From: Candidatus Limnocylindria bacterium
GTDB lineage: Bacteria; Chloroflexota; Limnocylindria; QHBO01
Direction of reading: 5' to 3'
Length of the DNA stretch: 64,000 nucleotides
Assembly: GCA_035759945.1 (NCBI GenBank)
Contig: DASTTX010000160.1
Span: 22,004-86,003, forward strand
Shown in pieces: positions 6,856 to 23,625 of the stretch (positions are counted from its first letter, which is position 1; each line of letters opens with the position of its first letter). The position numbers and the translations under genes were made by a program. The notes under the pieces were generated by a model. It saw only the letters and a list, made by a program, of their open reading frames with translations. It ran no database searches and was not told the DNA's origin.

Positions 6856-7710
6856 GTGCCGCCGGGAACGACTGCTACGATACGGCCCGTGAAGCTGCTG
6901 GCGGCCGACATCGGCAACACGAACGTCTCGATCGGGCTCTTCACCGACGACCGGCTGGCGCGCTCGTGGCGCGCCATCACGCGTGCGAACGCGACCTCCG
7001 ATGAAGTCGCCGCCATGCTCACCGGCCTGCTCGCGCTGGACGGGCACCGCCTCGACGAGCTCGACGCGGTCGCGCTTGCCAGCGTCGTCCCGCCGCTGAC
7101 CGAGACGTGGGAGCGCCTCAGCGCCGATCGGATCGGCGTGGCGCCCGCCATCGTCGACGCCGCCTCGCTCGACGGCATCCTCGACATCCGGATCGATCGG
7201 CCATCGGAGGCCGGTGCGGACCGTCTCGCCAACGCGCTGGCCGCGCGGACCGAGTTCGGCGGGCCGGCGATCGTGATCGACCTGGGCACCAGCACGAACT
7301 TCGACCTCGTCGACGCCGATGGCGCCTACATCGGCGGGGCGATCGCGCCGGGCATGGGCCTCAGCCTGGAGGCGCTGGTCGGCCGCGCCAGCAAGCTGCC
7401 GCGCATCGAGCTGCGGCGTCCGCCGTCGGCGATCGGCGCCAACACCATCCACGCCATGCAGTCCGGAGCGGTGCTTGGCTACATCGGCCTGGTCAGCGGG
7501 CTGCTGACCGCGCTGCGCGGCGAGCTGATCGAGCGGTCGCCGCGCGAGGCCCGCATCACGGTCGTGGCAACCGGCGGGTACACCCACCAGCCGTGGCTGA
7601 GCGAGGTGCCCGGCATCGACCGGGTCGAGCCCGACCTCACCCTGCGCGGCATCCACTACGCGTGGGCCGCCATCCGTGATCGGTCACGCACCGCGGCGGG
7701 CGAGCGATGA
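6856..7710 (+). CDS. coaX: Type III pantothenate kinase
   Basis: LLAADIGNTN (Bvg accessory factor family phosphate-1 motif), DLGTSTNFD and TGGY motifs. GTG at 6889 is an alternative start. Confidence 0.9.
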   Translation: MPPGTTATIRPVKLLAADIGNTNVSIGLFTDDRLARSWRAITRANATSDEVAAMLTGLLALDGHRLDELDAVALASVVPPLTETWERLSADRIGVAPAIVDAASLDGILDIRIDRPSEAGADRLANALAARTEFGGPAIVIDLGTSTNFDLVDADGAYIGGAIAPGMGLSLEALVGRASKLPRIELRRPPSAIGANTIHAMQSGAVLGYIGLVSGLLTALRGELIERSPREARITVVATGGYTHQPWLSEVPGIDRVEPDLTLRGIHYAWAAIRDRSRTAAGER

Positions 7711-8975
7711 ACGAGGGCCTGGGCCCACTCGCCGGGCGCCGCATCGTCGTCGGCGTCTCGGGCAGCATCGCCGCCTACAAGGCGGTGAGCCTGGTCCGCA
7801 TGCTGGGCGACCGGGGCGCCGTTGTCGACGTCGCCATGACCGCCGCAGCGACGCGCTTCGTCGGTCCGCTGACCTTCGAGAGCCTCACCCACCGGCCCGT
7901 GCTCGACGACGTCTTCGAGCTCGACGCCGAACAGCAGATCGCGCACATCGAGCTGGCCGAGGCGGCCGATGCGATCGTCCTCGCCCCTGCGACCGCCAAC
8001 CTCATCGGCGAGCTGGCGGCCGGCCTGGTGGGTGACGCGGTGACCGCCATCGCGTGCGCCAGCCGCGCGCCGGTCATCGTGGCGCCGGCGATGGACGCCG
8101 GCATGTGGACGCACCCGGCCACGCAGCGCAACGTGGCCACCCTGCGCGACTTCGGCTACATCCTGGTCGAGCCCGAGGTCGGCGAGCTCGCGTCGGGGCT
8201 GACGGGCATCGGCCGCCTGGCGGAGCCGCCGACCATCGTCGCTGCGGTCGAGCACCTGTTCGCGCGAGCGGGGGACCTCGAGGGCCTGCACGTCGTGGTC
8301 AGCGCCGGCGGCACGCGGGAGCCCCTCGACCCCGTCCGCTTCATCGGCAATCGGAGCAGCGGCAAGATGGGCGCCGCCCTGGCGGAGGCCGCCCGCGATC
8401 GCGGCGCTGCGGTGACGCTGATCGCCGGCGCCATGAGCGTCACGCCACCACGCGGCGTCACGGTGATCGAAGCAACGACCGCGCACGCGATGCGCGAGTC
8501 GGTCCTGCGGGCGGCGCCGAACGCCGACATCCTGGTCATGGCCGCGGCCGTCGCGGACTTCGCGCCGGCCCGCGCCAGCCAGCGCAAGATCAAGCGATCC
8601 GGCGACACGCTCCAGATCGAGCTCGTGCCGAACCCGGACATCGTGGCCGAGGTCGGCGAGATGCCCGACGAGGTGCGTCCGTTTCTCATCGGCTTCGCGG
8701 CCGAGTCGAACGACCTTGAGGCGAACGCGGCGGCGAAGCTGCGCGACAAGGGGCTCGACCTCATCGTCGGCAACGTGGTCGGCGGGCCGTTCGACGCCAT
8801 CGGCTCCGATGAGAACAAGGTCACCGTCTTCGCTGCCGAGGGCGCGCTGACCGACTGGCCGATGCTGCCCAAGCGACAGGTCGCCGAGCGCCTGTGGGAT
8901 CTCATCGCTGACCGATACCGACGCTCGAGGGGGGCGACCGAGAGCACGACCTCCCCGCGCCGCCGCCGTTCGTGA
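7707..8975 (+). CDS. coaBC: Bifunctional phosphopantothenoylcysteine decarboxylase / phosphopantothenate-cysteine ligase
   Basis: N-terminal flavoprotein domain (VGVSGSIAAYKA) with a PXM(N/D)XXMW motif that here reads PAMDAGMW. C-terminal CoaB domain with GGTREPLDPVRFIGNRSSGKMG. It overlaps the coaX stop by 4 nt. Confidence 0.9.
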   Translation: MNEGLGPLAGRRIVVGVSGSIAAYKAVSLVRMLGDRGAVVDVAMTAAATRFVGPLTFESLTHRPVLDDVFELDAEQQIAHIELAEAADAIVLAPATANLIGELAAGLVGDAVTAIACASRAPVIVAPAMDAGMWTHPATQRNVATLRDFGYILVEPEVGELASGLTGIGRLAEPPTIVAAVEHLFARAGDLEGLHVVVSAGGTREPLDPVRFIGNRSSGKMGAALAEAARDRGAAVTLIAGAMSVTPPRGVTVIEATTAHAMRESVLRAAPNADILVMAAAVADFAPARASQRKIKRSGDTLQIELVPNPDIVAEVGEMPDEVRPFLIGFAAESNDLEANAAAKLRDKGLDLIVGNVVGGPFDAIGSDENKVTVFAAEGALTDWPMLPKRQVAERLWDLIADRYRRSRGATESTTSPRRRRS

Positions 8976-9826
8976 TCGTCGTCCACACCGCGGAGGAGCT
9001 GCGAGACGCGATCCTCCAGCGCCGGATCGCCGGCGACAGCGTCGGCTTCGTGCCCACCATGGGCATGCTCCACGACGGCCAGCTGTCGCTCGTGCGGCGC
9101 GCGCGCGCCGACAACGGCTGCGTGGTCGTCTCGTCGTTCGTGAACCCGCACGCCTTCAGCACGCTGGACGAGGGCCAGCCCGGCGCTCGCGATCACGTTC
9201 GCGACCTGGCGCTGCTCGACCACGCCGAGGTCGACATCGCCTTCCTGCCGGAGGTCACGACGCTCTACCCGCCCGACGACACGACGCGCGTCACGGTGGA
9301 GGGTCTGACGCGGCAGCTGGAGGGCGCGTCTCGCCCCGGACACCTCGACGGGCTGACCACGGTCATGCTCAAGCTGCTCCACCTGGTCGGCCCGGCCCGC
9401 CTGTACCTCGGCCAGCGCCACGCCCAGCAGGTCGTGATCGTCCGCCGCATGCTGCGCGACCTGTTCATGAACGTGGAGCTCGTGATCTGCCCCACGATCC
9501 GCGACGACGACGGGCTGGCGCTGTCGAGCGCCAACGCCCTGCTCGGCATCGAGGAGCGCCACGCCGCGACGTGCCTGTACAACGCGCTCAATGCGGCGAA
9601 GGCCGCCTACGACGCCGGCGAGCGCTCGGCGGAGGTGCTGCGCTGGCGGATGACCGACGTGCTGGCGGCCGAGCATCGCGCGCGCATCGACTACGTCAGC
9701 GTCGCCGACGCGACCACACTGGCCGAGCTGCAGCGCGTGTCCGATCCGGCACTGGCGCTCGTCGCGATCTGGATCGGGCGGGCGCGGCTGACCGACAACA
9801 TGCCGCTTGCCTGGGACGTGGCATAG
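8972..9826 (+). CDS. panC: Pantoate--beta-alanine ligase homolog (PanC-like; non-canonical active-site motifs)
   Basis: Alignable with E. coli/M. tuberculosis PanC along its whole length (VPTMG, EGASRPGH, LALSS). It overlaps the coaBC stop by 4 nt. Several canonical motifs are altered; see the finding at 8972..9826. Confidence 0.8.
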   Translation: MIVVHTAEELRDAILQRRIAGDSVGFVPTMGMLHDGQLSLVRRARADNGCVVVSSFVNPHAFSTLDEGQPGARDHVRDLALLDHAEVDIAFLPEVTTLYPPDDTTRVTVEGLTRQLEGASRPGHLDGLTTVMLKLLHLVGPARLYLGQRHAQQVVIVRRMLRDLFMNVELVICPTIRDDDGLALSSANALLGIEERHAATCLYNALNAAKAAYDAGERSAEVLRWRMTDVLAAEHRARIDYVSVADATTLAELQRVSDPALALVAIWIGRARLTDNMPLAWDVA

Positions 9827-9993: not shown

Positions 9994-11085
9994 CTACAGG
10001 CGCTGGAGCAACCCGTCCACGTCGATCGCGCCGTCGACCAGGTCGATGATGGTCGCGATCTTCTCCGTGTCGGCCGGATGCGTCTTGACCAGGATCTCGT
10101 CAACCGCCTGGGCGGTGCGATACGTATCGGTCCGGACCAGGTAGGCGAACAGGCCGGCTCGTCTGAGCTCGGCCAGGACCGGAGGGCGTGGCTCGAAACC
10201 GCCGGTCAGAATCACGCCGATGACTCGCGGCACGCGCGCCCCGCGGTTCGCCTCGATCGCCGCCAGCAGGAGATCGTCGCGATCGCCGGGCGTGATGAGC
10301 AGCGTTCGGTCACGCAGCAGCTCGACGGCGTGGACCGCCTCCATGGCGCCGATGGCGACCCAGCCGATCGTCTCGCCCGGTGCGGCCTCGCCGCTGCGCA
10401 GCTCTCCCTCGAGGTGCGTCGCCACCAGCTCGAGCGAGGGGTTGGCCAGCAGCTCGGAATACGGGATGCAGCCGAGGAGCTCGACGCCGTGCTGGGAAAG
10501 CCCGCGGGCGAGGATCGCGGGCAGGTCGGGGTGCGAGACGACGTCGACCTTGTTGACCACCGCGCCCAGCACGCGCACGCCGTTGGCGGCGAAGAGCGAG
10601 ACGTTGAGCACGATCTCGTCGATCGGCCGGCCGACGCCACCTTCGCTGACGACGATGACCGGCGCGTCGAGCATTGCCGCGGCCTGGGCGTTCGAGAGGC
10701 CGATGACCGCCCCCACGCCCGCGTGCCCGGTGCCCTCGATGACGACGACGTCCCGATCGCTCGCGACCCGTTCGTACGCCGTGGCGACCTGCGCCGCGAG
10801 GTCGTCGCCGATGCGTCCCATGATGAAGTCGGTGGTGAAGCGCCGCGGCAGGGTCACCGGCGACATGTCGTTCAGCGCATCGGGCAGGCCGAACACCTCG
10901 CTCATCAGGACCGCGTCCTCGTCAGCGCGGGTGCCGTCGACGACGAGGTAGCGCTGGCCGACCGGCTTCAGGAAGCCGAGCCGCAGCCCGCGCTCCCGGA
11001 TTGCGGCAAGCAGACCGAGGCTGGTCGTCGTCTTGCCACGGTTCTGGCCGGTGGCGGCCAGGAAGACGCGCCTCGCCGAGCTCAC
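9994..11085 (-). CDS. Stand-alone phosphotransacetylase N-terminal-domain-like protein (BioD/CobQ-like P-loop + DRTGG domain)
   Basis: N-terminal FLAATGQNRGKTTTSLGL (P-loop, like the Pta N-domain) and C-terminal LLITPGDRDDLLLAAIEA (DRTGG-type). There is no Pta catalytic domain. Confidence 0.7.
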   Translation of the reverse strand: MSSARRVFLAATGQNRGKTTTSLGLLAAIRERGLRLGFLKPVGQRYLVVDGTRADEDAVLMSEVFGLPDALNDMSPVTLPRRFTTDFIMGRIGDDLAAQVATAYERVASDRDVVVIEGTGHAGVGAVIGLSNAQAAAMLDAPVIVVSEGGVGRPIDEIVLNVSLFAANGVRVLGAVVNKVDVVSHPDLPAILARGLSQHGVELLGCIPYSELLANPSLELVATHLEGELRSGEAAPGETIGWVAIGAMEAVHAVELLRDRTLLITPGDRDDLLLAAIEANRGARVPRVIGVILTGGFEPRPPVLAELRRAGLFAYLVRTDTYRTAQAVDEILVKTHPADTEKIATIIDLVDGAIDVDGLLQRL

Positions 11086-11139: not shown

Positions 11140-11745
11140 CTACGAACGGGACTTCGTGCGGCGCTCCACGAGCTCGACGCCCTCGCGCAGCCGGCCGATG
11201 AGCTCGGCGTCGATCATCTCGGGCTCGAGGTGCTCGCCGAGCCGCTCGAGCATGTCGGCCGCGACGGACAGCAGCACGTCCGCATCCGCAATGAAGAACT
11301 GCGGCTCGTTGTTGTAGCGCACGAGCGTCAGGCGGCCCTGGAGCGTGAGCCCGGACTCGGTGTGCGACAGCTGCGTCCCGAAGTTGTGGCCCTGGATGCC
11401 ATCCGGGTTGTTGAGAAAGTTCAGCGCGTTGTCAATGACGAGGCCGAAGCGGGCGCGCCACGACACCAGCCGCTCCTGCACGTCGGACGGCAGGCCCATC
11501 TCACCGAGCTCCTCGAAGACGCCGCGGTCGACGGTCAGGAGCCCAACCAGCGTCGACCCGGCACGGCCGCCGAGCATGACCTGGAGCGACCGCTCCAGCG
11601 TGAACACGTCGGCGTCGAAGCGTGGGCTGGTCGTGACCTCGGCCAGCAGGTCCTCGACGTTGTCGAGCTGGCCGGGATCGGCAAGCGCATTCGCGAGGTT
11701 GTGGATCTCCTCTCGGAACAGGAAGCGCTCTTCGTGATCGAGCAT
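11140..11745 (-). CDS. Hypothetical protein (201 aa)
   Basis: Complete ORF on the same strand, 55 bp upstream of the DRTGG gene. Coding-like composition. No family recognised. Confidence 0.5.
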   Translation of the reverse strand: MLDHEERFLFREEIHNLANALADPGQLDNVEDLLAEVTTSPRFDADVFTLERSLQVMLGGRAGSTLVGLLTVDRGVFEELGEMGLPSDVQERLVSWRARFGLVIDNALNFLNNPDGIQGHNFGTQLSHTESGLTLQGRLTLVRYNNEPQFFIADADVLLSVAADMLERLGEHLEPEMIDAELIGRLREGVELVERRTKSRS

Positions 11746-11749: not shown

Positions 11750-13018
11750 CTACGGGTAGAGCCCGCGCAGCATGGTCGCCTCGGCGACGCGGGCGACGGC
11801 GACCATGTAGGCCGCGGTCCGCATGTCCACCTCGTGGCGCTCGCTCATGGCGTAGACCGCCTCGAAGGCGCGGTCCATGATCTCCTTGAGGCTCTCGTTG
11901 ATGCGCTCCTCGGTCCAGAAGAAGCTCTGCATGTCCTGGACCCACTCGAAGTAGCTGACCGTCACGCCGCCGGCGTTGCAGAGGATGTCGGGGATGAGGA
12001 AGACGCCGCGGTCGTAGAGGATCGCATCGGCTTCAGGAGTGGTCGGTCCGTTGGCGGCCTCGGCCACGACCTTGGCCTTGATGCGTGGGGCGTTGTGCCG
12101 CGTGATCTGATTCTCGAGCGCGGCCGGGACGAGGATGTCGCAGTCGACCTCGAGCAGCTCCTGGTTGCTGACCTCGTCGGCTCCGGGGAAGCCGACCACC
12201 GTGCCGTGCTCCTGCTTCCACGTCCCGACCTTCGATGGCTCCAGGCCGTTCGCGTTGTGGATGCCGCCGCTCGAGTCGCTCACGGCCACGATGGTGGCCC
12301 CCTGCTCGCGCAGCAGCGTCGCCGCGATGCTGCCGGCGTTGCCGTAGCCCTGGATCGCGACGCGCGCGCCGTGGAGCGGCTGGTTCTTCGCCGCCGCCCA
12401 CTGCTGGAGCGTGAACACGGCGCCACGCGCGGTGGCCTCGTTGCGGCCCAGCGAGCCACCGACCGCGATCGGCTTGCCGGTCACGACGCCGGGGATGGTG
12501 AAGCCGTGGTGCATGGAATAGGTGTCCATGATCCAGGCCATGGTCTGCGCGTTGGTGTTGACGTCCGGTGCAGGGATGTCGCGCTCGGGACCGATGAGCG
12601 GGCTGATCTCCGTCGTGAAGCGGCGCGTCAGCCCCTCGACCTCGCGGATCGACAGCTGCTTGGGATCGACGACCACGCCGCCCTTGGCTCCGCCGTACGG
12701 AATGTTGACGCACGCGCACTTCCACGTCATCCACATCGACAGCGCACGGACCTCGTCCAGGCTCACGTCCTGGTGGTAGCGGATGCCACCCTTGCCCGGC
12801 CCGCGGCTCACGTTGTGCTGGACGCGGTGGCCGGTGAAGACGCGGACGGATCCGTCGTCCATGGTGACGGGGAAGTTGACCGTCAGCTCACGCTGGGGAA
12901 CGCGGAGGACGCGCCGCATGCCATCGTCGAGATCGAGCTTGTCGGCTGCGTGGTCGAACTGCGACTGGGCGACCGCCCAGATGTTCGGTGCCTCCGCCAC
13001 GGGGTTCTGGCTGGCCAT
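11750..13018 (-). CDS. gdhA: Glutamate dehydrogenase (Glu/Leu/Phe/Val dehydrogenase family), paralog 1
   Basis: Catalytic-lysine region GGAKGG, an NAD(P) Rossmann fold (GYGNAGS), and a conserved dimerisation domain. Confidence 0.9.
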   Translation of the reverse strand: MASQNPVAEAPNIWAVAQSQFDHAADKLDLDDGMRRVLRVPQRELTVNFPVTMDDGSVRVFTGHRVQHNVSRGPGKGGIRYHQDVSLDEVRALSMWMTWKCACVNIPYGGAKGGVVVDPKQLSIREVEGLTRRFTTEISPLIGPERDIPAPDVNTNAQTMAWIMDTYSMHHGFTIPGVVTGKPIAVGGSLGRNEATARGAVFTLQQWAAAKNQPLHGARVAIQGYGNAGSIAATLLREQGATIVAVSDSSGGIHNANGLEPSKVGTWKQEHGTVVGFPGADEVSNQELLEVDCDILVPAALENQITRHNAPRIKAKVVAEAANGPTTPEADAILYDRGVFLIPDILCNAGGVTVSYFEWVQDMQSFFWTEERINESLKEIMDRAFEAVYAMSERHEVDMRTAAYMVAVARVAEATMLRGLYP

Positions 13019-13159
13019 AGGTGCGGTGAGTGCCTCCTATGCGACGCGACGCCGGCGCCTCTACGCGCCGCATGGTCCGAAGGCGGAAGCAGGCCGGATC
13101 GCGGTGACGGTTCCCGATTCTAGCGCAGGTCTCGTACGCGCCACCGGTACGAAGGAGGG

Positions 13160-15532
13160 ATGCGCGCCGAGCGCTCGACGGACGTCCGTCCCGCTAGCAT
13201 CACGCCGATGACAACCGCCGACGTGCTCGAGGCTCCCCCACCCCGCCTCACGACCGCCGATGCCGAGGGCGTCGCCCGAACCACGTTCGGCATCGAGGCC
13301 ACCGCCGAGCCACTCGTCAGCGAGCGCGATCAGAACTTCCGGCTGACCGATGCCGCCGGCGCCGGATGGGTCCTGAAGGTCTCCAACGCTGCGGAGGACC
13401 CCGGCGTGGTGGAGATGGAGGTCGCGGCCGTCGAGCGGATCGCGCTGGTCGAACCCGGGCTGCCACTGCCGGTGGCGCGGCCCGCGCTCGACGGATCCCC
13501 GATCGCGACGACCCACATCGGTGAAACGCAGCACCTCGTGCGCCTCCTGCCGCTCCTGCCTGGCCGCAACGCCAGGCCGGGCGAGCTGGACGCCGCCAGC
13601 GTCCGCGACATCGGCGAGCTGGTGGCGCGCATCGGCCATGCATTACGTGGGTTCTTCCATCCCGCCGCAGGCAGGACGATCCTGTGGGACCAGCAGCGGC
13701 TGCCCCTTCTCTTCAAGCACAGCGCCTTGGTCGAAGCACGACCGCGTCGCGATCTCCTGGAACGAGTGCTCGAGCGCTTCCGCGACCGGGTCCTGCCGGC
13801 GCTGCCGACGCTCCGGTCACAGGTCATTCACAACGACCTGACGCTCGACAACCTCCTGGTGGACGAGGCCGGGCACGTGACGGGCGTCATCGACTTCGGC
13901 GACATGGCCCACACCGCGCTGGTGCTCGACATCCCCGCCACGCTCCAGTCGCTCGTCCGCGAGCGCGATGAAATCTTCGCCGTGGCACAGGCATTCCTGG
14001 CCGGCTATGCGTCGGTCGTGCCGCTCGAGGAGCTCGAGGTGGAGCTGCTCGGCGACCTGCTGGCCGGGCGGATGGCGCAGACGATCCTGATCAGCGCGTT
14101 TCGCACCAGGCAGTACCCGGACAACGCCTACATCCACGGCTGGGCGGAGCCGGCCTGGGTGCTGCTCGAGCAGCTCGACGCGATCGGCTTCGACGATGCC
14201 TCACGCCGGCTTGCCGCCATGGCGGCGCAGCCGATGGGCTCCTCCGTCGCGAGCGACGAGGCGCTCATCGCGCGGCGGGCCGTGCTCGGCAGCGCGCTGG
14301 AGCCGCTGAGCTATCGGCGACCGCTGCATCTGGTTCGCGGGCGCGGCGCGTGGCTGGGGGACGCCGATGGACGGCGCTACCTCGACGCCTACAACAACGT
14401 GCCCGTCGTCGGCCATGCGCACCCGAAGGTGGTCGACGCCATCGCGCGCCAGTCATCGTTGCTGAACACGAACACGCGCTACCTGCACGAGCACGTGGTC
14501 GAGCTGGCGGAGCGCATCACTGCGTCCATGCCCGACGGGCTCGACACGGTCATGTTCGTCAACTCCGGGAGCGAGGCGAACGACCTCGCCTGGCGCATCG
14601 CCTCGACGGTGACCGGCGGCGACGCCGGGCTCGTCACGGATTGGGCGTACCACGGCGTCACGGCACGGATCGCGGATTTCTCGCCGTCTGAGTGGAACGA
14701 CGGCGTGCGGCCCGATGGCGTGGAGACGTTCGCGGCACCCAACACCTACCGAGGCCCGTCCGCCGACGCTGATGACCCGCCAGCGATCGCCGCCGAGGAG
14801 ATGGGATCTGCCGTGGCGCGACTGGGCGAGCGTGGTCGGCGGCCAGCGGCGCTGTACATCGACTCGCTCTTCAGCGCCGACGGGATCTTCACGCCGGATC
14901 CTGCGGTCGTTCGAGCGCTGGTGGAGTCGGCGCGCAAGGCCGGTGCGCTGTGGGTGGCGGATGAGGTCCAGTCCGGCCACGGCCGCACCGGCGGCGGCCT
15001 GTGGGGCTTCAGCGCATGGGGCATCACGCCGGACTTCGTCACGCTCGGCAAGCCGATGGGGAACGGTTATCCGATCGCTGCGGTCGTCACCCGCTCGGAC
15101 CTCGTGGACCGGTTCGCGAAGGCGACGACGTTCTTCAGCACCTTCGGCGGCAATCCGGTGGCGTGCGCCGCGGCGCTCGCCGTGCTGGACGTGATCGAGG
15201 ACGAGGACCTGGTCGCGCGGGCAGCGACCGTCGGCGACTCGCTGCGAGGCGACCTGTCGGCGCTCGCCGACAGCCATCCGTCCATCGGCGACGTGCGCGG
15301 CCGCGGGCTGATCGCCGGCGTCGAGCTCGTGCTCGACCGCGTCACGCGGGAGCCCGATCGTGAGCTGGCCGCTCGTGTCAAGGACGAGATGCGCGAGCGC
15401 GGCGTGCTGATCGGGACGACCGGCCGCCACGGCAACGTCCTGAAGATCCGTCCCCCGCTCGCGATCACCGCCGACGAGGCAGTGATGATCCCGACCCGCC
15501 TCGGCCAGGTGCTGACGGACCTCGAGCGCTAG
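13160..15532 (+). CDS. Fusion protein: N-terminal APH/choline-kinase-like kinase domain + C-terminal class-III (PLP) aminotransferase/phospho-lyase-like domain
   Basis: Kinase Brenner motif HNDLTLDN (HxDxxxxN) and IDFGD. C-terminal GK-box TLGKPMGNG (PLP lysine), DEVQSG and class-III hallmarks. 790 aa; an alternative start is MTTADVL at 13208. Confidence 0.85.
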   Translation: MRAERSTDVRPASITPMTTADVLEAPPPRLTTADAEGVARTTFGIEATAEPLVSERDQNFRLTDAAGAGWVLKVSNAAEDPGVVEMEVAAVERIALVEPGLPLPVARPALDGSPIATTHIGETQHLVRLLPLLPGRNARPGELDAASVRDIGELVARIGHALRGFFHPAAGRTILWDQQRLPLLFKHSALVEARPRRDLLERVLERFRDRVLPALPTLRSQVIHNDLTLDNLLVDEAGHVTGVIDFGDMAHTALVLDIPATLQSLVRERDEIFAVAQAFLAGYASVVPLEELEVELLGDLLAGRMAQTILISAFRTRQYPDNAYIHGWAEPAWVLLEQLDAIGFDDASRRLAAMAAQPMGSSVASDEALIARRAVLGSALEPLSYRRPLHLVRGRGAWLGDADGRRYLDAYNNVPVVGHAHPKVVDAIARQSSLLNTNTRYLHEHVVELAERITASMPDGLDTVMFVNSGSEANDLAWRIASTVTGGDAGLVTDWAYHGVTARIADFSPSEWNDGVRPDGVETFAAPNTYRGPSADADDPPAIAAEEMGSAVARLGERGRRPAALYIDSLFSADGIFTPDPAVVRALVESARKAGALWVADEVQSGHGRTGGGLWGFSAWGITPDFVTLGKPMGNGYPIAAVVTRSDLVDRFAKATTFFSTFGGNPVACAAALAVLDVIEDEDLVARAATVGDSLRGDLSALADSHPSIGDVRGRGLIAGVELVLDRVTREPDRELAARVKDEMRERGVLIGTTGRHGNVLKIRPPLAITADEAVMIPTRLGQVLTDLER

Positions 15533-16704
15533 ACGGTCTCGATCGCCATGGCCACCGCTCCACCGCCGCCGAGGCAGAGCGTCGCCAGGCCCCTGCCGCC
15601 GCCACGACGGCGCAGCTCGTAGAGGAGCGTCGTCAGCACGCGGGCGCCGGAGGCGCCGATGGGATGGCCGAGCGCGATCGCGCCACCGTTGACGTTAACG
15701 CGGTCCCAGTCGAATCCGAGCTCGTTGCCATCGGCCAAAACCTGGGCTGCGAAGGCCTCGTTGATCTCGATCAGGTCGAAGTCGTCCAGCGTCCCGCCGA
15801 CCTTCTGGATCAGGCGCCGAACGCCATGGATCGGCGCCTCGAACAGCCACTCGGGGGCGACGTCGGCCTGGGCGTAGCCGGTGATGCGCGCCATCGGCTG
15901 GGCGCCATTCATGGCCTCTTCGGAGCCGATGACGACGGCAGCCGCGCCATCGGTGATCCCCGGCGCGTTTCCCGCGGTGACGGTCCCGCCATCGGGCTGG
16001 AAGGCCGGCCGGAGCTTCGCGAGCGCCTCGGCGCTCGTATCGGCCCGGGGCCCTTCATCGGCCGAGACGACGGTGTCGCCCTTCTTGCCCGCCACGGTGA
16101 CCGGCACGATCTCGTCGTCGAAGCGCCCCGCCTCCTGTGCCGCGATGGCTCGCTGGTGCGAGCGCAGCGCCAGCTCGTCCTGCGCCTCGCGCGTGACATC
16201 GTGCTTCGCCGCCACCCGCTCGGCGTGCAGGCCCATGTGGACGTCGCAGGTCGCGCACCACAGGCCGTCGTGAACCGTCGCGTCGACGAGCACGCCATTG
16301 CCGAGCCGGTAGCCGGTGCGCGCCTGCGGCAGCAGGTAGGGCGCCATGTTCATGCTCTCCATGCCGCCCGCCACGATGAGATCGGCGTCGCCGGCACGGA
16401 TGGCCGATGCGCCGATCATCACCGCCTTCAGGCCCGAGCCACAGACCTTGTTGATGGTCGTTGCGCTGACGCCCTCAGGCAGCCCTGCCTTCAGCGCGGC
16501 CTGGCGTGCCGGCGCCTGGCCGGCGCCCGCCTGGAGCACCTGGCCGATGATCGCCTCGTCGACCCGTTCGGGCGCAATGCCGGCTCGCTCGACGGCGGCG
16601 CGGATCGCGACTGCGCCCAGGTCCGTGGCGGGGGTGGTCGAGAGCCCACCGCCGAACTTGCCGATCGGCGTCCTGGCGGCGGAGAGGATGTACACGTCAC
16701 GCAT
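15529..16704 (-). CDS. Acetyl-CoA C-acetyltransferase (thiolase II)
   Basis: N-terminal ILSAARTPIGKFGG with NKVCGSGLKA (active Cys), a C-terminal GGGAVAMAIE-type region with the active-site Cys (LCLGGG), and the conserved H in the NGGAIALGHP motif. Confidence 0.9.
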   Translation of the reverse strand: MRDVYILSAARTPIGKFGGGLSTTPATDLGAVAIRAAVERAGIAPERVDEAIIGQVLQAGAGQAPARQAALKAGLPEGVSATTINKVCGSGLKAVMIGASAIRAGDADLIVAGGMESMNMAPYLLPQARTGYRLGNGVLVDATVHDGLWCATCDVHMGLHAERVAAKHDVTREAQDELALRSHQRAIAAQEAGRFDDEIVPVTVAGKKGDTVVSADEGPRADTSAEALAKLRPAFQPDGGTVTAGNAPGITDGAAAVVIGSEEAMNGAQPMARITGYAQADVAPEWLFEAPIHGVRRLIQKVGGTLDDFDLIEINEAFAAQVLADGNELGFDWDRVNVNGGAIALGHPIGASGARVLTTLLYELRRRGGGRGLATLCLGGGGAVAMAIETV

Positions 16705-16885
16705 GTGCTGATGGTACTCGTCGGCGGCGCCCGCCGGGTTTGGCAGAGCCGGGTGCCAAGCTGCACCTGCCGGCCGTTGGCGCCGTTCTGTCAGGGACCA
16801 ACCAGGGGCGCCTTAGGCGCAGTCCGCCAGCCCGACGATCGGGGCAACCCGTCATCTGCCATTCGCATTGGTACCTGGCGACGAA

Positions 16886-16898
16886 TTGCGAGTCGCAA
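16886..16898. promoter_or_regulatory. 6-1-6 perfect palindrome TTGCGAgTCGCAA in fadD-thiolase intergenic region
   Basis: Read directly. It lies in the 269-bp gap, ~180 bp upstream of the thiolase start and ~75 bp downstream of the fadD stop. Confidence 0.25.
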
Positions 16899-16972
16899 CG
16901 CCCGTGGGAGCGAAACGCAGCCGCTCGTGTTCGCCTCAGGTCGCCGTGGTTGGTATCCGGCGAAACCCGCCG

Positions 16973-18895
16973 CTATTTCGAGTCGGCGGGGCGCTCGTCG
17001 AACAGGTACGCGACCTTGTCGGCCCAGTTCTTCACGACGACGCGGTTCTTCGTCTTCAGCGAGGGCGTCAGCTCCCCCTCTTCCTCGGACAGCAGGCGCG
17101 GCAGGAGGGCGACCCGCCGCGGCCGCTCGTGCACGCCGAAGCCGTCGAGCGTGCGCTTGACCTCGGTGTCGTACAGCTTCTCGACGGATGGCTGCTCGAC
17201 CAATTGCTCGGGCGGCATCTCCGCCAGGCCGTTGGCCGCGGCCCAGGCCCCGAGCTCGTCGAAGTCCGGCGCGATCAGCGCTCCGGTGTACGGCTGGCCA
17301 TCGCCGAGGATGACCGCCTGGGCCACGAACCGCGAGCTCGAGAGCGCCGCCTCCATCGGTCCGGGCGAGACGTTCTTGCCATTGCCGAGGACGATGATGT
17401 TCTTGAGCCGATCGGTGATGCGGATGCGGCCGATCTCGTCCAGCTCGCCGATGTCGCCGGTATGGAACCAGCCATCGGCGTCGATGGCGCGGGCGGTCTC
17501 CTCGGGCTGGTTGAGGTAGCCCTGCATGACCTGCGGGCCGCGGACCAGGATCTCGCCGGTGTCCGGATCGATGCGCACCTCGGAGCCCGGTGCGGCGCGT
17601 CCGACCGTCCCGAACACGAAGTCGTCAGGACGGTTGACACTGACGAACGGCGAAGTCTCGGTCAGGCCGTATCCCTCGAGGACCAGCATGCCCATGGCGT
17701 AGAAGAACTCGCCGATCTCGCTCGACAGCGCCGCCGACCCCGACACGAAATAGCGCACGCGACCGCCGGTCCGGTCCCGGATCTTGCCGAAGACCAGGGC
17801 ATCGGCAACCTTCAACTGGAGCGCGAGCCAGGGCGAATCGCCGCGTCCGGCCAGGTGGTTGGCGTACTTCCGGCGCCCGAGCCCGGCGGCCCAGTGGAAG
17901 ATGCGCTGACGCATCGGCGAGCCGGCCTCGACGGCGGACAGCACGCGAGCGTAGACGCGTTCGTACAGCCGCGGTGGCGCGCCCATGACGGTCGGGCGCA
18001 CCTCGACCATGTTCGCGGGCAGCCGCTCGATGACCGCCTCCGCGTACACCACGGCGGCCCCGCGACCGAGCGCAATGACCTCGTCGACGATCCGGCCGTA
18101 GATGTGCGACAGCGGAAGGAAGCTGAGGAAGATATCGGTCTCGTAGAAGTCGACGACCTGGTTGGCCGCCTCGTAGTTGAAGAGCACGTTGCCGTGACTG
18201 AGGACCGCTCCCTTTGGGTTGGCCGTGGTGCCCGAGGTATGGATGACGGTGGCGATGTGGTCCCGGTCGATGGCCTTCCAGGCGTCCTGCCATTCGAGGC
18301 GGTTGGCGGCGTCGGTATCGGCTCGGGCCATGACGTCGTCGAGGGTCAGCGTGCCCGCCGGCAGCTTGCCGCTCGGCTCGAAGGCCACGATGTGCTCGAG
18401 CGTCGGGCACTCGGCTCGGATCGACTCGATCTTGGCGGCCTGCTGCGCATTCTCGACGAAGATCAGGCGCGCGCTGACGTTGTTGATGACGAACGCGGCC
18501 TGGCCCGCCTCCGACTGCGGATAGATCGGGCACGTGACCGCGCCGAGCGCCAGCGACGCCAGGTCGGCGATCGCCCACTCCGGACGCGTGCGCGCGATGA
18601 TCGCGACCGAGTCCCCGTCATGGATGCCGATGTCCTTGAGGCCAAGCGACACGCTGGTGACCCAGTCCCACATCTCGCGATACGTTCGGCTGGTCCAGAC
18701 CGCCTCGGTGGCGCCCTCCGGCCGCTGGGACTTGGGAAGCTTCCAGCGCATCGCCTCGCGGCCGGAGTTGCGCTCGACGGATCGGTGGATGAGGTCGACC
18801 ACGCTGCTGGCGCGGTCCTCGGGCGCGACGATCAGGGGCTCGAGCTCGGGGGTCTGCAGGACGCGCGGCACGGCGGTGGCGGCGGGGGTCGTCAT
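16973..18895 (-). CDS. fadD: Long-chain-fatty-acid--CoA ligase (AMP-dependent synthetase/ligase)
   Basis: AMP-binding signature HTSGTTANPKGAVLSHGN, GYGLTETS, and the GWFHTGDIGELDEIGRIRITDRLKNII linker/A8 region. Confidence 0.9.
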   Translation of the reverse strand: MTTPAATAVPRVLQTPELEPLIVAPEDRASSVVDLIHRSVERNSGREAMRWKLPKSQRPEGATEAVWTSRTYREMWDWVTSVSLGLKDIGIHDGDSVAIIARTRPEWAIADLASLALGAVTCPIYPQSEAGQAAFVINNVSARLIFVENAQQAAKIESIRAECPTLEHIVAFEPSGKLPAGTLTLDDVMARADTDAANRLEWQDAWKAIDRDHIATVIHTSGTTANPKGAVLSHGNVLFNYEAANQVVDFYETDIFLSFLPLSHIYGRIVDEVIALGRGAAVVYAEAVIERLPANMVEVRPTVMGAPPRLYERVYARVLSAVEAGSPMRQRIFHWAAGLGRRKYANHLAGRGDSPWLALQLKVADALVFGKIRDRTGGRVRYFVSGSAALSSEIGEFFYAMGMLVLEGYGLTETSPFVSVNRPDDFVFGTVGRAAPGSEVRIDPDTGEILVRGPQVMQGYLNQPEETARAIDADGWFHTGDIGELDEIGRIRITDRLKNIIVLGNGKNVSPGPMEAALSSSRFVAQAVILGDGQPYTGALIAPDFDELGAWAAANGLAEMPPEQLVEQPSVEKLYDTEVKRTLDGFGVHERPRRVALLPRLLSEEEGELTPSLKTKNRVVVKNWADKVAYLFDERPADSK

Positions 18896-18969
18896 CGGTC
18901 TGGCGTCTCCTGGTTGATGTGGGCGTCATCGGTTTCGCAGGCGCGCTGCGGAGGGCTACGGTCCGGTCG

Positions 18970-20151
18970 TCATCCCTCCCGGCGCATGCCGTCGAGCAGG
19001 CCCTGGGCCACGATGAGCCGATGGATCTGGTTGGTCCCCTCGTAGATCTGCGCTCCCTTGGCGTCTCGCATGAGGCGTTCCACCGGGTTGTCGCGCGAGT
19101 AGCCGGCGCCGCCGTAGATCTGCACGGCGTCGGTCGTCACGCGCATGGCGGTGTCGGAGGCGTACCACTTGGCCATGCTCGAGGCTGAATTGATCGGATG
19201 ACCGGCGTCACGCATGCGGGCCGCCCGCCAGGTGAGCAACCGCGCGGCATCGACCTGGACCGCCATCTCGGCCAGCATCGCCTGGATCATCTCCTGGTCG
19301 GCGATGGCGCGACCGAACTGGCGCCGCTCGAGCGCATAGCGCGTGGCGAGCTCGAGCGCATTGCGCGCCAGGCCGACGCAGCAGGCGGCGATGCTGATCC
19401 GTCCCGCGCCGAGCGACGAGAGCGCGACGCGCAGCCCCTCCCCCTCCTCGCCGAGACGGTTGTCGGCCGGGACGCGGGCGTCCTCGAACACGATCTCGTA
19501 CCCGGTGGTGCCGCGAATGCCCATCTTCCGCTCCTTCGAGCCGAGGCGGAAGCCGGGGGTGTCGGCCTCGACGACGAAGGCGGTGATGCCGTCCTTGCCC
19601 TTGCTGCGGTCGACGGTGGCGAAGACGACGTAGCGGGCCGCCTCGCCGGCGTTCGTGATCCAGATCTTCGTCCCGGTCAGGAGGTACGCGTCGCCGTCGC
19701 GCCGCGCGGAGAGCGAGAGCGCTGCCGCATCGGAGCCGGCGCCCGGTTCGGTGAGCGCGAAGGCGCCCAGCTCGCGGCCGGCGGTCATCGACGGGAGGAA
19801 GCGCTGCTTCTGCTCCTCGGACCCGCTGGCGAAGATGCACAGCTGGCTCAGGATGTGAACCGAGAAGCTGACGGCCAGGCCCATGTCGGCGGCGCCGATC
19901 TCCTCGGCAGCGAGGGCCCACGCGAAGCTGCCCATCCCGGCACCGCCGTACGCCTCGGGATACGGGAGCCCGGTCAGTCCGAGCTCGCCGGCGCGATGGA
20001 AGAGCGAGATGTCGTAGCGCTCGGCCTCGTCACGCTCCGCGGCGCCGGGCAGCACCTCCCGCCGCGCCCAATCGCGGACCGTGTCGCGGACGACCCGCTC
20101 TTCCTCCGTCAGCGCGAACGAGTCGCGGGTGGGCGCCGTCTCGACCGCCAC
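18970..20151 (-). CDS. Acyl-CoA dehydrogenase (short-chain/butyryl-CoA dehydrogenase-like)
   Basis: ACAD N/M/C domains, GAFALTEPGAGSD, a YxGT-like FAD region and the catalytic Glu region QIYEGTNQI. GTG start at 20151. Confidence 0.9.
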   Translation of the reverse strand: MAVETAPTRDSFALTEEERVVRDTVRDWARREVLPGAAERDEAERYDISLFHRAGELGLTGLPYPEAYGGAGMGSFAWALAAEEIGAADMGLAVSFSVHILSQLCIFASGSEEQKQRFLPSMTAGRELGAFALTEPGAGSDAAALSLSARRDGDAYLLTGTKIWITNAGEAARYVVFATVDRSKGKDGITAFVVEADTPGFRLGSKERKMGIRGTTGYEIVFEDARVPADNRLGEEGEGLRVALSSLGAGRISIAACCVGLARNALELATRYALERRQFGRAIADQEMIQAMLAEMAVQVDAARLLTWRAARMRDAGHPINSASSMAKWYASDTAMRVTTDAVQIYGGAGYSRDNPVERLMRDAKGAQIYEGTNQIHRLIVAQGLLDGMRREG

Positions 20152-21030
20152 CTATCCGACCTTCTTGCCCGTCTCGTCGTAGGTGTAGAAGCCGCGTCCG
20201 GTCTTGCGCCCGAGATGTCCGGCGGTGACCATCTGGCGCAGCAGCGGCGCGGCGCGGAACTTCGGGTCGCCGAAGCCGCGGTACAGCACGTCCATGACGC
20301 CGAGCATCACGTCGTTGCCGATGAAGTCGCTCAGCTCGAGCGGTCCCATCGGATGGTTCAGGCCGAGCTTCGCGCCGGTGTCGATGTCCTCCGCCGTGCC
20401 GGTCGACTCCATGAGCGCGAACACGGCCTCGTTGATGAACGGGCCGAGCATCCGGTTCACCAGGAAGCCCGGGTAGTCCTTCGACTCGATCACCGTCTTG
20501 CCGAGCTCCTCGGCGAACGTGCGGCAGGCGTCGTAGGTCTCGTCGTCGGTCTCGAGCCCGCGGATGATCTCGATGAGGCCCATCACCGGCACGGGCGAGA
20601 AAAAGTGCAGGCCGATGAACCTCGGCGCACGGTCGGTCGCCGTGGCGAGGCCGGTGATGCTGATGCTGCTGGTATTCGAGGCGAAGATCGCGATCGGGTC
20701 CGCCGCCTTCGTCAGCGCCTCCCAGGTCTGCCGCTTGACCGATTCGTCCTCGAACACGGCCTCGATGACGATGTCGTGGCCGGCGGCGCCATCGGTCCCT
20801 TCGCTGGTGCTGACGCGTTCGAGGATCTCGTCCGCGGCCGACTGCTCGAGCTTGCCCTTGTCCACCTGTCGCTTCAGGTTGGAGCCGATGCGAGCCTTGC
20901 CCTTCTCCGCCAGCTCCGCCGTGCGGTCGGAGAGCGTCACCCGCTTGCCGGCGGCAGCGCTGACCTGGGCGATGCCGTGGCCCATCAGCCCGGCGCCGAT
21001 GACGAAAACGCGTTCGATGCTCATCGTCAT
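20152..21030 (-). CDS. hbd: 3-hydroxybutyryl-CoA dehydrogenase
   Basis: Rossmann VFVIGAGLMGHGIAQV, SNTSSISIT and the catalytic His region; the C-terminal domain is typical of the 3HCDH family. The start ATG overlaps the meaB stop (ATGA). Confidence 0.9.
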   Translation of the reverse strand: MTMSIERVFVIGAGLMGHGIAQVSAAAGKRVTLSDRTAELAEKGKARIGSNLKRQVDKGKLEQSAADEILERVSTSEGTDGAAGHDIVIEAVFEDESVKRQTWEALTKAADPIAIFASNTSSISITGLATATDRAPRFIGLHFFSPVPVMGLIEIIRGLETDDETYDACRTFAEELGKTVIESKDYPGFLVNRMLGPFINEAVFALMESTGTAEDIDTGAKLGLNHPMGPLELSDFIGNDVMLGVMDVLYRGFGDPKFRAAPLLRQMVTAGHLGRKTGRGFYTYDETGKKVG

Positions 21031-21941
21031 CCAAGCCTACCAGCGTCGAGCAGGCGTTCGGCCGCGGTGAACGGGTCGAGCTCGCGATCCGCAACGGCCT
21101 GGACCGTTGCCTCCCAGCCCGGATCAGCCTCCGCGTGCCTGGCGGCGAGGTCGGCCAGTGCGCGCCGCACCTGGCTCGCGGCGCGTTCGCGCGCCCGCAT
21201 CGGCGAGCGCGCGGTGGAGCGATGCGCCTCGATCGCGTCGACGAGTGCGGGCACGCCCTCGGCGGTCGTGGCCGTGGTCACCAGGACCGGGGGCGGCTTG
21301 CGCTCGATCCGTCCACCGGCGGTGGACAGCATGGCGCGCAGCTGCCTCGCCGCCCGATCGGCACCCGGGCGGTCACCCTTGTTCACGGCGATGATGTCGG
21401 CCACCTCGAGCAGCCCTGCCTTGATGGCCTGCACCTCGTCGCCCATCTCGGGCACCTCGACCACGACGGTCGTCTCCGCGAGCCGGGCGATCTCGACCTC
21501 CGACTGCCCCGCCCCGACCGTCTCGATCAGGATCGGGTCGAAGCCCGCCGCATCGAGCGCGGCGGCGGCGATCCAGGTCGTGGCCGCCAGCCCGCCGAGC
21601 TCACCGCGCGACGCCATGGAGCGCATGAAGACGTCGCGATCGGCGGCGTGCTCCATCATCCGGATCCGATCGCCCAGGATCGCGCCGCGTGTGTACGGCG
21701 AGCTCGGGTCGACCGCCAGGATCCCGACGCGCCTGCCACGGCCGCGCCACGCACCGATGAGCGCGTTGACCAGCGTTGACTTGCCGCTCCCTGGCGGCCC
21801 GGTGATGCCGACCACGTGGGCCCCATGCCCGGCGCTGAACAGCTCCGGCAGGAGCTCCCGAACCGATGGATCGCCGCTCTCGATCCGCGTCAGCAGCCGC
21901 GCCAGCGGTCGCCGCTGGCCGGATGCCAGCTCCGCGATCAT
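21027..21941 (-). CDS. meaB: Methylmalonyl-CoA mutase-associated G-protein chaperone MeaB/ArgK
   Basis: P-loop GITGPPGSGKST, G3 ETVGAGQSE and NKGD (NKxD) motifs. Confidence 0.9.
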   Translation of the reverse strand: MIAELASGQRRPLARLLTRIESGDPSVRELLPELFSAGHGAHVVGITGPPGSGKSTLVNALIGAWRGRGRRVGILAVDPSSPYTRGAILGDRIRMMEHAADRDVFMRSMASRGELGGLAATTWIAAAALDAAGFDPILIETVGAGQSEVEIARLAETTVVVEVPEMGDEVQAIKAGLLEVADIIAVNKGDRPGADRAARQLRAMLSTAGGRIERKPPPVLVTTATTAEGVPALVDAIEAHRSTARSPMRARERAASQVRRALADLAARHAEADPGWEATVQAVADRELDPFTAAERLLDAGRLG

Positions 21942-21950
21942 GGGCGGCTG

Positions 21951-21970
21951 CCGTATATACCGTATATACG
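21951..21970. repeat. Tandem AT-rich palindromic element CCGTATATAC-CGTATATACG between icmB-like and meaB
   Basis: Two direct copies of a 9/10-mer containing the palindrome GTATATAC sit in the 36-bp intergenic gap. Local AT content is far above the ~30% background. Confidence 0.5.
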
Positions 21971-21977
21971 CAGTCCG

Positions 21978-22394
21978 TCAGGCCCGACGCACATGCTCGC
22001 GGAAGTAGCGCGCGATCTGCCCGATGCTCGTGCCCGGCCCGAAGATCTCCGCGACGCCCGCCGCCTTCAGCTTGGTGACGTCGGCATCGGGGATGATCCC
22101 GCCCGCGGCGACGAGGACGTCGTCCATGCCCCGTTGGCGGAGGAGCTCGACGGTCCGCGGCAGCAGGGCCATGTGGGCGCCGGACAGGATCGACAGCCCG
22201 ACGACGTCGACGTCCTCCTGCTCGGCGGCATCGGCGATCATCTCCGGCGTCTGGCGCAGGCCGGTGTAGATCACCTCGAAGCCCTCGTCGCGCAGCCCGC
22301 GCGCGAGCACCTTGGCGCCGCGATCGTGCCCGTCGAGGCCGGGCTTCGCGATGAGGACGCGGATGGGCGCGTCGGTCGAGCGGTCGTTCGTCAT
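21978..22394 (-). CDS. icmB: B12-binding small subunit of an acyl-CoA mutase (isobutyryl-CoA mutase small-subunit-like)
   Basis: Cobalamin-binding domain: [15 protein letters not shown] (DxHxxG His-on motif) and GGIIP. ~138 aa from ATG at 22394. The track ORF's extra 32 aa is upstream read-through. Confidence 0.8.
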
Positions 22395-22630
22395 CGGCGG
22401 GCCGATTCTACCCGGCTCCGCGTCGGTACCTGCCATGGGGACTGGAAATCGGTGCTGATGGGAGAGCGTTAGCCGGCGGATGCGTCGCAACGGACGCCGA
22501 TCCGAGCGTCAATTGCCAGCCAACGTGTCTCAATGGCCGCATAACGTGCCGCCGAGCGCGCAGATTTCCAGTCGCGCGTCGTGACCGGTCTAACGCGCGG
22601 ATGCCGAGCAGATGTCAAGTCGAGACGACG

Positions 22631-22924: not shown

Positions 22925-22928
22925 CGCT

Positions 22929-23516: not shown

Positions 23517-23625
23517 AGGACCCCGGGTGGTTTGGGAGCCGATTCGGACCTGTTCGGCGCGCCCGGCCTTCGGTACACTCGAAGCGCCCATCCGACGCCT
23601 TGACGAGAGGAGGTTCGACGCCGGA

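Follow-up and report, generated by a model that had tools for sequence, protein, structure and literature searches.

When one bacterial polypeptide joins what appears to be a small-molecule kinase to what appears to be an aminotransferase, a simple question arises: do the two halves catalyse successive steps on one metabolite and, if so, on which? The question is posed by a gene found at positions 13160-15532 of the forward strand in a 64,000-nucleotide stretch of DNA (hereafter, the window) from a Candidatus Limnocylindria bacterium of the phylum Chloroflexota (GenBank assembly GCA_035759945.1, contig DASTTX010000160.1, positions 22,004 to 86,003). The original prediction, made from the letters of the window, was that the gene encodes a single-polypeptide fusion of a kinase of the APH fold with a class-III, pyridoxal phosphate (PLP)-dependent domain, which would phosphorylate an amino alcohol and then eliminate the phosphate. 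Here we argue that the product probably is, indeed, a bifunctional enzyme that degrades a vicinal (1,2-) amino alcohol in two steps and without B12. Its halves belong to the clades of hydroxylysine kinase and of the phospho-lyases, respectively, and retain the residues appropriate to each; the presence of the two activities, their succession and their common substrate are what we infer. The open reading frame (ORF) and its domains are laid out as follows:

13160..15532, plus strand: the whole fusion ORF, 790 aa (ORF list and translation), with an alternative start, ATG 13208, at M17
13223..14227, plus strand: N-terminal small-molecule kinase of the APH/eukaryotic-like-kinase fold, aa ~22-356 (Pfam, AlphaFold2 (AF2) model, Foldseek, similarity to the hydroxylysine kinase HYKK)
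14228..14260, plus strand: inter-domain linker, aa ~357-367, with no Peptidase_M23 insert (alignment to the Arthrobacter aurescens lyase A1RDF1; per-residue model confidence, pLDDT)
14261..15523, plus strand: C-terminal class-III PLP domain of the phospho-lyase clade, aa ~368-788 (Pfam, PDB matches, bootstrap)

With any such fusion, a reality check is in order. The reading frame is uninterrupted for 790 codons, from ATG 13160 to the stop at 15532 (+), and the G+C content at its third codon positions (GC3), 0.89, resembles that of the neighbours and of the real genes in this 70%-GC window. The true start may be ATG 13208, since the homologue consensus opens at M17 and only 1 nt separates the AGGAGG upstream of 13160 from the first ATG. 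A scan of positions 12800-15900 for promoters and terminators yielded nothing meaningful, and an exact look-up of the 790-aa protein found no record. In a collection of 5.8 billion proteins, each of the best 120 homologues is a single chain of 676-853 aa with both Pfam domains; the assemblies behind them (JGI, ENA, NCBI and Logan) are independent, and the closest homologues belong to named metagenome-assembled genomes (MAGs) of Chloroflexota and Candidatus Limnocylindria. Similarly, a genome scan with one genome per species confirmed at least 568 relatives, and an intact, full-length fusion was found at 60 of the 80 species-level loci that were kept. Because the assemblies are independent and so many of the loci are intact, the fusion is not an artefact of assembly or of a frameshift.

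A check of the domain boundaries with Pfam assigns aa 51-279 to APH (PF01636; E 4.6e-21) and aa 389-783 to Aminotran_3 (PF00202; E 2.6e-72), so that, with one intact ORF carrying both domains, the predicted fusion of an APH-fold kinase with a class-III PLP domain stands. In the AF2 model of the N-terminal 366 residues (pLDDT 85; predicted TM score, pTM, 0.84), the chain folds as a bilobal kinase, the last helix of which spans aa 344-356. The first residue that aligns to A1RDF1 (to its residue 18) is aa 368; the linker is, therefore, about 10 residues long. The model of the full-length monomer has a pTM of 0.48, with pLDDT below 50 at aa 358-393 and with the linker and the active-site loops at low confidence. 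By analogy with other class-III enzymes, the fusion protein is probably dimeric via its PLP domain.

The relationships of the N-terminal half can be read from direct comparison. In BLASTP, it aligns end to end (340 residues) with a Papio hydroxylysine kinase (P0305), at 28% identity and 138 bits, which bears out the predicted homology to the animal AGPHD1/HYKK. The two proteins have in common the motifs S-x-x-DQNF, VLK(V/I)SN and LVRLL..LPGR, the catalytic loop, and DFGDM. For HYKK, as well as for the animal phospho-lyase PHYKPL considered below, human sequences served as probes only: the analysis was performed on the database proteins retrieved, under the names that they bear in the source, and the HYKK probe matched one database protein at 100% identity and also pulled out primate proteins named hydroxylysine kinase. 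The bacterial kinases, whether fused, tri-domain or stand-alone, form one clade that is sister to the animal HYKK, at 25-28% identity. Among proteins of known structure, the best kinase match (32 bits) is 2ppq, a structural-genomics 'homoserine kinase', and a Foldseek search with the kinase model returned small-molecule kinases only, with 2ppq, the amicoumacin kinase AmiN, the aminopropanol kinase 6ef6 and the N-acetylhexosamine kinase NahK at the top. Membership in the type II homoserine kinases (ThrB2) was considered and rejected, with 58 bits against a cutoff of 271 for PRK05231 and 39.9 against 255.9 for TIGR00938. When the N-terminal half alone is compared with NCBIfam, the SrkA/RdoA model scores 23.8 bits and the aminoglycoside-resistance APH models score at most 21. 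Together, these comparisons mark the N-terminal half as related to hydroxylysine kinase and as part of an HYKK-related kinase clade.

The C-terminal half is closest to phospho-lyases. Its best matches among PDB sequences are the two O-phosphoethanolamine phospho-lyases that have been characterised structurally, A1RDF1 (5g4i, 337 bits) and human ETNPPL (6tor, 323 bits), followed by dialkylglycine decarboxylase (DGD, 205 bits) and GabT (at most 198 bits); the identity is 42% to A1RDF1, 40% to ETNPPL, about 40% to PHYKPL and 35% to DGD. A neighbour-joining (NJ) tree was built from ten fusion C-domains, A1RDF1, ETNPPL, five PHYKPL sequences, DGD, and the E. coli GabT and ArgD as taken from the annotated genome, with the following bootstrap support:

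all lyases together (fusion C-domains, A1RDF1, ETNPPL and PHYKPL) against DGD, GabT and ArgD: 100/100
fusion C-domains: 99/100
animal ETNPPL with PHYKPL: 100/100

Thus, the domain does not group with GabT or ArgD but with the phospho-lyases, and the naming of AGXT2L1 and AGXT2L2 as its homologues proves correct, given the score of ETNPPL and the position of PHYKPL inside the fully supported clade. In agreement with the tree, four signatures, D-x-(Y/I)-N-N-V, T-N-x-R-(Y/F)-L, GK(P/S)(M/I)GNG and LK-x-(R/K)-PP, are found in every member of the lyase clade and in none of DGD, GabT and ArgD. The combination of R440, K762 and absence of a counterpart of GabT R141 is an operational signature drawn from the present alignment rather than a published definition. 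By tree and signatures alike, the C-terminal half is a member of the phospho-lyase clade, not of the GabT, ArgD or DGD groups. The NCBIfam model of the (R)-1-hydroxy-2-aminoethylphosphonate ammonia-lyase PbfA (NF049939) gave 205 bits against a cutoff of 525.

Are the two active sites likely to be functional? Conservation was assessed over 61 full-length fusions, that is, the window protein and 60 others that are 44-73% identical to it and span Chloroflexota, Actinomycetota, a haloarchaeon and others. The principal motifs are these:

13370..13381, plus strand: VLKV with the beta-3 lysine K73, predicted to bind the nucleotide phosphates; K73 in 60/61; aligns with VLKI of vertebrate HYKK
13829..13852, plus strand: HNDLTLDN, predicted catalytic loop, aa 224-231 (H224, predicted base D226, N231); 61/61; aligns with HGDLNDHN of HYKK
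13889..13903, plus strand: IDFGD, predicted metal-binding loop, aa 244-248 (D245, D248); D245, G247 and D248 in 61/61; aligns with LDFGD of HYKK
14465..14485, plus strand: NTNTRYL with R440, specific to the lyase clade; R440 in 60/61 (alignment)
14960..14977, plus strand: DEVQSG, where D601 corresponds to the class-III Asp paired with the pyridine nitrogen of PLP; D601, E602 and Q604 in 60/61; aligns with DEVQ of GabT and ArgD
15041..15067, plus strand: TLGKPMGNG, aa 628-636, with the predicted Schiff-base lysine K631; 61/61; aligns with K268 of E. coli GabT
15437..15460, plus strand: VLKIRPPL, with K762 in place of GabT R398 and an extra basic residue, R764; K762 and R764 in at least 97% of the fusions

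In the kinase half, K73, H224, D226, N231, D245, G247 and D248 are each kept in at least 60 of the 61 fusions, and E87 is kept in 52. Accordingly, all the hallmarks of the kinase fold (the beta-3 lysine, the HxDxxxxN loop and the DFG-like metal loop) are there and conserved, and the complete kinase apparatus predicted from HNDLTLDN and IDFGD survives the alignment. The lyase half retains R440, Y441, S471, H498, D601, E602, Q604, K631, T661, K762 and R764 in at least 60 fusions; its SGSEAN, YHG and DEVQ motifs align with those of the solved lyases, as befits a class-III enzyme (K631, D601, S471 and H498 in 60-61 of 61), and the lysine expected in TLGKPMGNG is the invariant K631. Because the residues of both halves are nearly invariant over the set, both active sites are under purifying selection.

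The following reaction sequence can be envisaged. The kinase would use ATP or GTP to phosphorylate the hydroxyl beside the terminal amine of the substrate, with D226 as the base, N231 and D245 holding the metal, and K73 and E87 holding the nucleotide. In the PLP domain, the amine of the phosphorylated substrate would displace K631 and form an external aldimine with PLP; removal of the alpha-proton would be followed by elimination of the beta-phosphate, and the released enamine would tautomerise and hydrolyse, so that the products would be an aldehyde, ammonia and phosphate. With both halves in the right clades and with the right residues in place, the core of the original prediction, a kinase followed by a phospho-lyase on an amino alcohol, is sustained as an activity predicted from sequence.

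The distribution of the two families adds a further argument. A HMMER search with the kinase half retrieved 929 representative clusters at E <=1e-30, the best 150 of which fall into these length classes:

stand-alone, ~345 aa: 95 of the best 150
bi-domain, ~780 aa: 27 of the best 150
tri-domain, ~1000 aa: 3 of the best 150
intermediate: 13 of the best 150
fragments: 12 of the best 150

In the tri-domain relatives P0140 and P0265, a Peptidase_M23 domain is inserted between the kinase and the lyase. One kinase family is thus joined to one lyase family in two different layouts, and such a recurrence is evidence of the Rosetta-stone kind for a link between the two activities. The architecture is widespread, with thousands of sequences in the databases and with both bi- and tri-domain forms, and the carriers of the fusion include Chloroflexota, Gaiellales, Solirubrobacterales, Nocardioides, Lysobacterales and the haloarchaea Natronorubrum and Halopenitus. 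Veiga-da-Cunha et al. 2012 (J Biol Chem 287:7246) reportedly took bi- and trifunctional bacterial fusions as the clue to the human AGPHD1, AGXT2L1 and AGXT2L2. The window protein adds to this known kind, and its architecture is expected rather than surprising. In public records, the fusions (P0001-P0120, P0138) go under such names as '4-aminobutyrate aminotransferase', 'Ser/Thr protein kinase RdoA (MazF antagonist)' or 'aminotransferase class III-fold PLP-dependent enzyme'; by the sequence relationships described above, these names are generic or probably wrong.

Several observations weigh against a two-step breakdown of an amino alcohol by the fusion. Stand-alone members of the kinase family (P0148, P0272 and P0273, in two distinct gene contexts) have no adjoining phospho-lyase, and the Aminotran_3 gene that lies near stand-alone kinases is 27% identical and not of the lyase type; hence, the kinase family is not obligatorily coupled to a lyase. 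The 25-28% identity to HYKK is too low for specificity to be transferred. In the NJ tree, the lyase domains of bacteria branch outside the two animal paralogues, ETNPPL and PHYKPL, and, since these paralogues split after the bacterial divergence, orthology cannot name the substrate. The full-length AF2 model has no defined domain interface; with regard to the substrate channelling that had been proposed for the fusion, the model gives no evidence either way. No aldehyde dehydrogenase or transporter gene is consistently adjacent to the fusion at the loci examined, so that gene context does not confirm a catabolic pathway. Finally, a literature search found no biochemical or enzymatic study of any bacterial fusion, and the earlier remark that such proteins are not biochemically defined still applies.

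Which amino alcohol would be degraded? Two positions near the cofactor, V603 (by the PLP-binding Asp) and M633 (by the Schiff-base Lys), match A1RDF1 and ETNPPL and are both Ile in 5/5 vertebrate PHYKPL sequences, which may be taken as a weak hint of a small substrate; the other residues that separate ETNPPL from PHYKPL send mixed signals. A weak hint of the opposite kind, towards hydroxylysine, comes from the specificity of the only characterised relative of the kinase. Ethanolamine, which would yield acetaldehyde, is in our view a serious candidate that falls somewhat short of being probable. It is possible, if doubtful, that the substrate is 1-amino-2-propanol or some other small amino alcohol, and we would say the same of 5-hydroxy-L-lysine, the product of which would be 2-aminoadipate semialdehyde; a substrate outside this range seems quite unlikely. 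Tentatively, the fusion could be envisaged either as the main route for ethanolamine or another abundant amino alcohol, requiring a single gene and neither B12 nor a microcompartment, in soil and freshwater Limnocylindria, Gaiellales, Solirubrobacterales and some haloarchaea, or else as an enzyme acting on a vicinal amino alcohol outside the three known phospho-lyase substrates.

Gene neighbourhoods could, in principle, narrow the choice. In the window, the fusion is flanked as follows:

11750-13018, minus strand: glutamate dehydrogenase (GDH), divergent, upstream of the fusion
15529-22490, minus strand: operon convergent on the fusion, encoding a thiolase, a FadD11-like acyl-CoA ligase, an acyl-CoA dehydrogenase, a 3-hydroxybutyryl-CoA dehydrogenase, a MeaB GTPase and the small subunit of a B12-binding mutase

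The thiolase, the last gene of this operon, overlaps the stop of the fusion by 4 nt. Genes were called at all 80 loci and the neighbours clustered. The synteny with GDH and the thiolase is confined to close relatives within Limnocylindria, the neighbouring genes of which are 83-98% identical, and the GDH neighbour is absent from the more distant Limnocylindria and from all actinomycetotal and archaeal loci among the 80. GDH recurring only among such similar neighbours amounts to synteny of a lineage and not to evidence for the handling of ammonia, and the suggestion that the divergent GDH recycles the ammonia released by the lyase is not supported. Across the 80 loci, no partner gene is conserved between phyla, which fits a self-contained two-step module and provides no independent pointer to a pathway; in the cultured carriers Nocardioides and Natronorubrum, the neighbours (RF3, PBP, nitrilase and glycosyltransferase genes) are uninformative.

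The convergent operon is of interest in relation to the most durable of the rival explanations, namely, that the fusion belongs to a bacterial hydroxylysine pathway, in which a 5-hydroxy-L-lysine kinase and a 5-phosphohydroxy-L-lysine phospho-lyase would produce 2-aminoadipate semialdehyde that enters lysine catabolism to acetoacetyl-CoA. HYKK is the only characterised homologue of the kinase half, a stand-alone relative that is 41% identical bears the automated JGI label 'hydroxylysine kinase', the next-best named kinase family, that of type II homoserine kinase, also acts on an amino acid, and the thiolase, 3-hydroxybutyryl-CoA dehydrogenase and acyl-CoA dehydrogenase of the operon could serve the lower lysine pathway. 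Against this stands the operon itself: it lies on the other strand and keeps its synteny in close relatives only. Its acyl-CoA dehydrogenase finds its best NCBIfam match in the acryloyl/butyryl-CoA type and scores 287 against a cutoff of 470 with the glutaryl-CoA dehydrogenase model, so that the operon was discounted as specific evidence of a lower lysine pathway. V603 and M633 match the phosphoethanolamine enzymes and not PHYKPL, a weak point in itself. Free 5-hydroxylysine is mainly collagen-derived; it would be an odd substrate for a gene of soil Chloroflexota, Actinomycetota and haloarchaea. Thus, a hydroxylysine pathway appears unlikely.

A second possibility is that the C-terminal domain catalyses genuine omega-transamination, racemisation or decarboxylation, with no elimination of phosphate. 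Its substrate, whether a phosphorylated amine or something unrelated, would be made or modified by the kinase, for example, in natural-product or aminocyclitol metabolism. Most class-III enzymes are, after all, transaminases (PMC8154272), the public records speak of a 4-aminobutyrate aminotransferase, and DGD is 35% identical. However, all NCBIfam transaminase models are far under their cutoffs with the C-terminal half, the GabT and ArgD models scoring 190-222 bits against 372-724 (TIGR00700, for GabT, 214 against 507). In GabT, R141 and R398 bind the carboxylates of the substrates. Both are missing here, R141 being aligned with V500 and R398 with K762 (where GabT has VLRILVPL, ArgD VMRFAPSL and DGD VFRIAPPL), and this loss fits an enzyme that has no keto-acid acceptor. 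Transaminase membership of the GabT/ArgD type was rejected on these two grounds, the missing arginines and the low scores. With the domain placed, at 100/100, in one clade with four groups of proven or named phospho-lyases, and with no biosynthetic gene cluster around the gene at any of the 80 loci, this explanation is highly improbable.

Least probable of all, to the point of being barely credible, is that the domains do not act sequentially on one metabolite, with the kinase being regulatory (directed at a protein or at the lyase itself) or serving resistance or detoxification and the lyase scavenging pre-formed phosphoethanolamine: A1RDF1 and the animal lyases do work as stand-alone enzymes on pre-formed phospho-substrates, the JGI label of the kinase half is 'Ser/Thr protein kinase RdoA', the top structural matches include the antibiotic kinases of the AmiN type, and stand-alone kinases of the family are not found beside lyases, but both layouts of the fusion persist, across phyla and without loss of either active site, the SrkA/RdoA and APH resistance models score as poorly as stated above, and the closest kinase of known function phosphorylates an amino alcohol in metabolism, its product being the substrate of the nearest relatives of the lyase.

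Returning to the surroundings of the gene, a number of side observations deserve to be recorded. In Gaiellales and other Actinomycetota (loci L028, L031, L032, L034, L038, L041, L051, L053, L057 and L070), a gene for a FabG-like short-chain dehydrogenase/reductase (SDR) lies directly upstream of the fusion on the same strand, with a gap of 10-11 nt or an overlap of 4 nt, a spacing that suggests an operon of the two genes. Identification of this SDR as the aminopropanol dehydrogenase of the RMM microcompartment was considered and rejected, because the protein is generically FabG-like and 6ci9 comes only about 31st among its PDB matches. On the downstream side, the commonest neighbour, seen in Gaiellales relatives, is an extracytoplasmic function (ECF) sigma factor, with 17 loci in all.

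At one locus of an uncultured Chloroflexia MAG (L073, 7824-10349), the neighbours are window-like, with a GDH 84% identical, a 201-aa ORF 96% identical and a Pta-N-like gene 80% identical to those in the window; the fusion itself is about 50% identical to all other fusions, has a GC3 of 0.80 and is followed by five genes of low GC3 instead of the thiolase. Either a replacement at the syntenic site or rapid evolution of the copy there could account for this. In the window, the 201-aa ORF (11140-11745, minus strand) is situated between GDH and the Pta-N-like gene, has no match in Pfam or NCBIfam, and is 92-98% identical across the Limnocylindria loci, above its neighbours. The Pta-N-like gene (9994-11085, minus strand) encodes a 363-aa protein that contains AAA_26 and DRTGG only, with no catalytic phosphate acetyltransferase (PTA) domain, and corresponds to the N-terminal half of phosphate acetyltransferase (positions 3-370 of the 708 of the PRK05632 profile). 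Further away, the window harbours a cluster of genes for CoA and pantothenate (type III pantothenate kinase, CoaBC and pantoate-beta-alanine ligase; 6856-9826, plus strand) with 4-nt overlaps and, directly upstream of the mutase/beta-oxidation operon, GTP cyclohydrolase I beside pterin-4a-carbinolamine dehydratase (22631-23591, minus strand). The only Rfam match above the gathering score in the window is a full-length ASdes small RNA (39176-39243, minus strand; 55.8 bits), which is antisense inside the ORF 38834-39796 (+).

If the two-step breakdown of amino alcohols that we consider probable is, indeed, the function of the fusion, many environmental bacteria and some archaea would convert amino alcohols into an aldehyde, ammonia and phosphate by means of a single gene, and neither the B12-dependent ethanolamine ammonia-lyase nor a microcompartment would be needed. 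Counted as species-level genomes, the carriers number in the hundreds, and the proteins in the databases run into the thousands. In practical terms, a widespread mis-annotation could be corrected, and culturable carriers exist for an assay, among them Nocardioides sp. Soil805, N. pelophilus, Natronorubrum texcoconense and Halopenitus malekzadehii.

It remains to compare the window protein with the known systems. The best NCBIfam matches of both halves are the tri-domain families PRK06148 and PRK06149 (APH + Peptidase_M23 + Aminotran_3, ~970-1015 aa), which comprise the same kinase and lyase families; the N-terminal half matches profile positions 7-336 and the C-terminal half positions 577-1010. 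Unlike these proteins, the window protein has the shorter, bi-domain layout: it lacks the central segment of about 240 residues that includes Peptidase_M23, a domain that the Pfam scan of the protein did not find. Because this middle segment is absent, the scores of the whole protein, 709 bits for PRK06148 and 577.5 bits for PRK06149, are under the cutoffs of 1128 and 973 bits, respectively.

The two-step chemistry itself has a precedent in the amino-alcohol kinase/phospho-lyase route of Pseudomonas, Erwinia and the mycobacterial RMM microcompartment; a kinase followed by a phospho-lyase is said to act there on ethanolamine or 1-amino-2-propanol (as reported by Jones, Faulkner and Turner 1973 and by Mallette and Kimber 2018). 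Among the structural matches of the kinase model, the aminopropanol kinase of the RMM, 6ef6, ranks fourth, but it is not an orthologue of the kinase half: phmmer finds no match at E up to 1, and the identity in the structural alignment is 20%. Unlike in the RMM system, there are no genes for microcompartment shell proteins near the window fusion. The animal ethanolamine kinases of the choline-kinase family, the source of phosphoethanolamine, are only a remote structural match (10% identity, Foldseek rank 44 or lower).

ETNPPL/AGXT2L1 (6tor) and A1RDF1 (5g4i/5g4j) are the best solved homologues of the C-terminal half, and GKPMGNG (around K631), DEVQ and LK(I/M)(R/K)PP are identical in form in all of them; in contrast to the fusion, these are stand-alone lyases that act on pre-formed phosphoethanolamine. 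Vertebrate HYKK and PHYKPL, the chemistry of which, like that of the other animal homologues, is confirmed (PMC8154272, PMC13149127, PMC5200902), are among the nearest characterised relatives of both halves. The animal proteins are separate, whereas in the window protein about 10 residues link the two domains within a single chain; the domains from bacteria fall into clades of their own, sister to the animal ones, such that the substrate need not be hydroxylysine; and positions 603 and 633 near the cofactor differ from those in PHYKPL. The kinase half is collinear with HYKK and has common motifs with it, including H-x-DL...N and DFGDM, the lyase half carries all the signatures of the lyase clade that are found in PHYKPL, and the fusion, like the animal pair, would phosphorylate a hydroxyl beside a terminal amine and then eliminate the phosphate with the aid of PLP.

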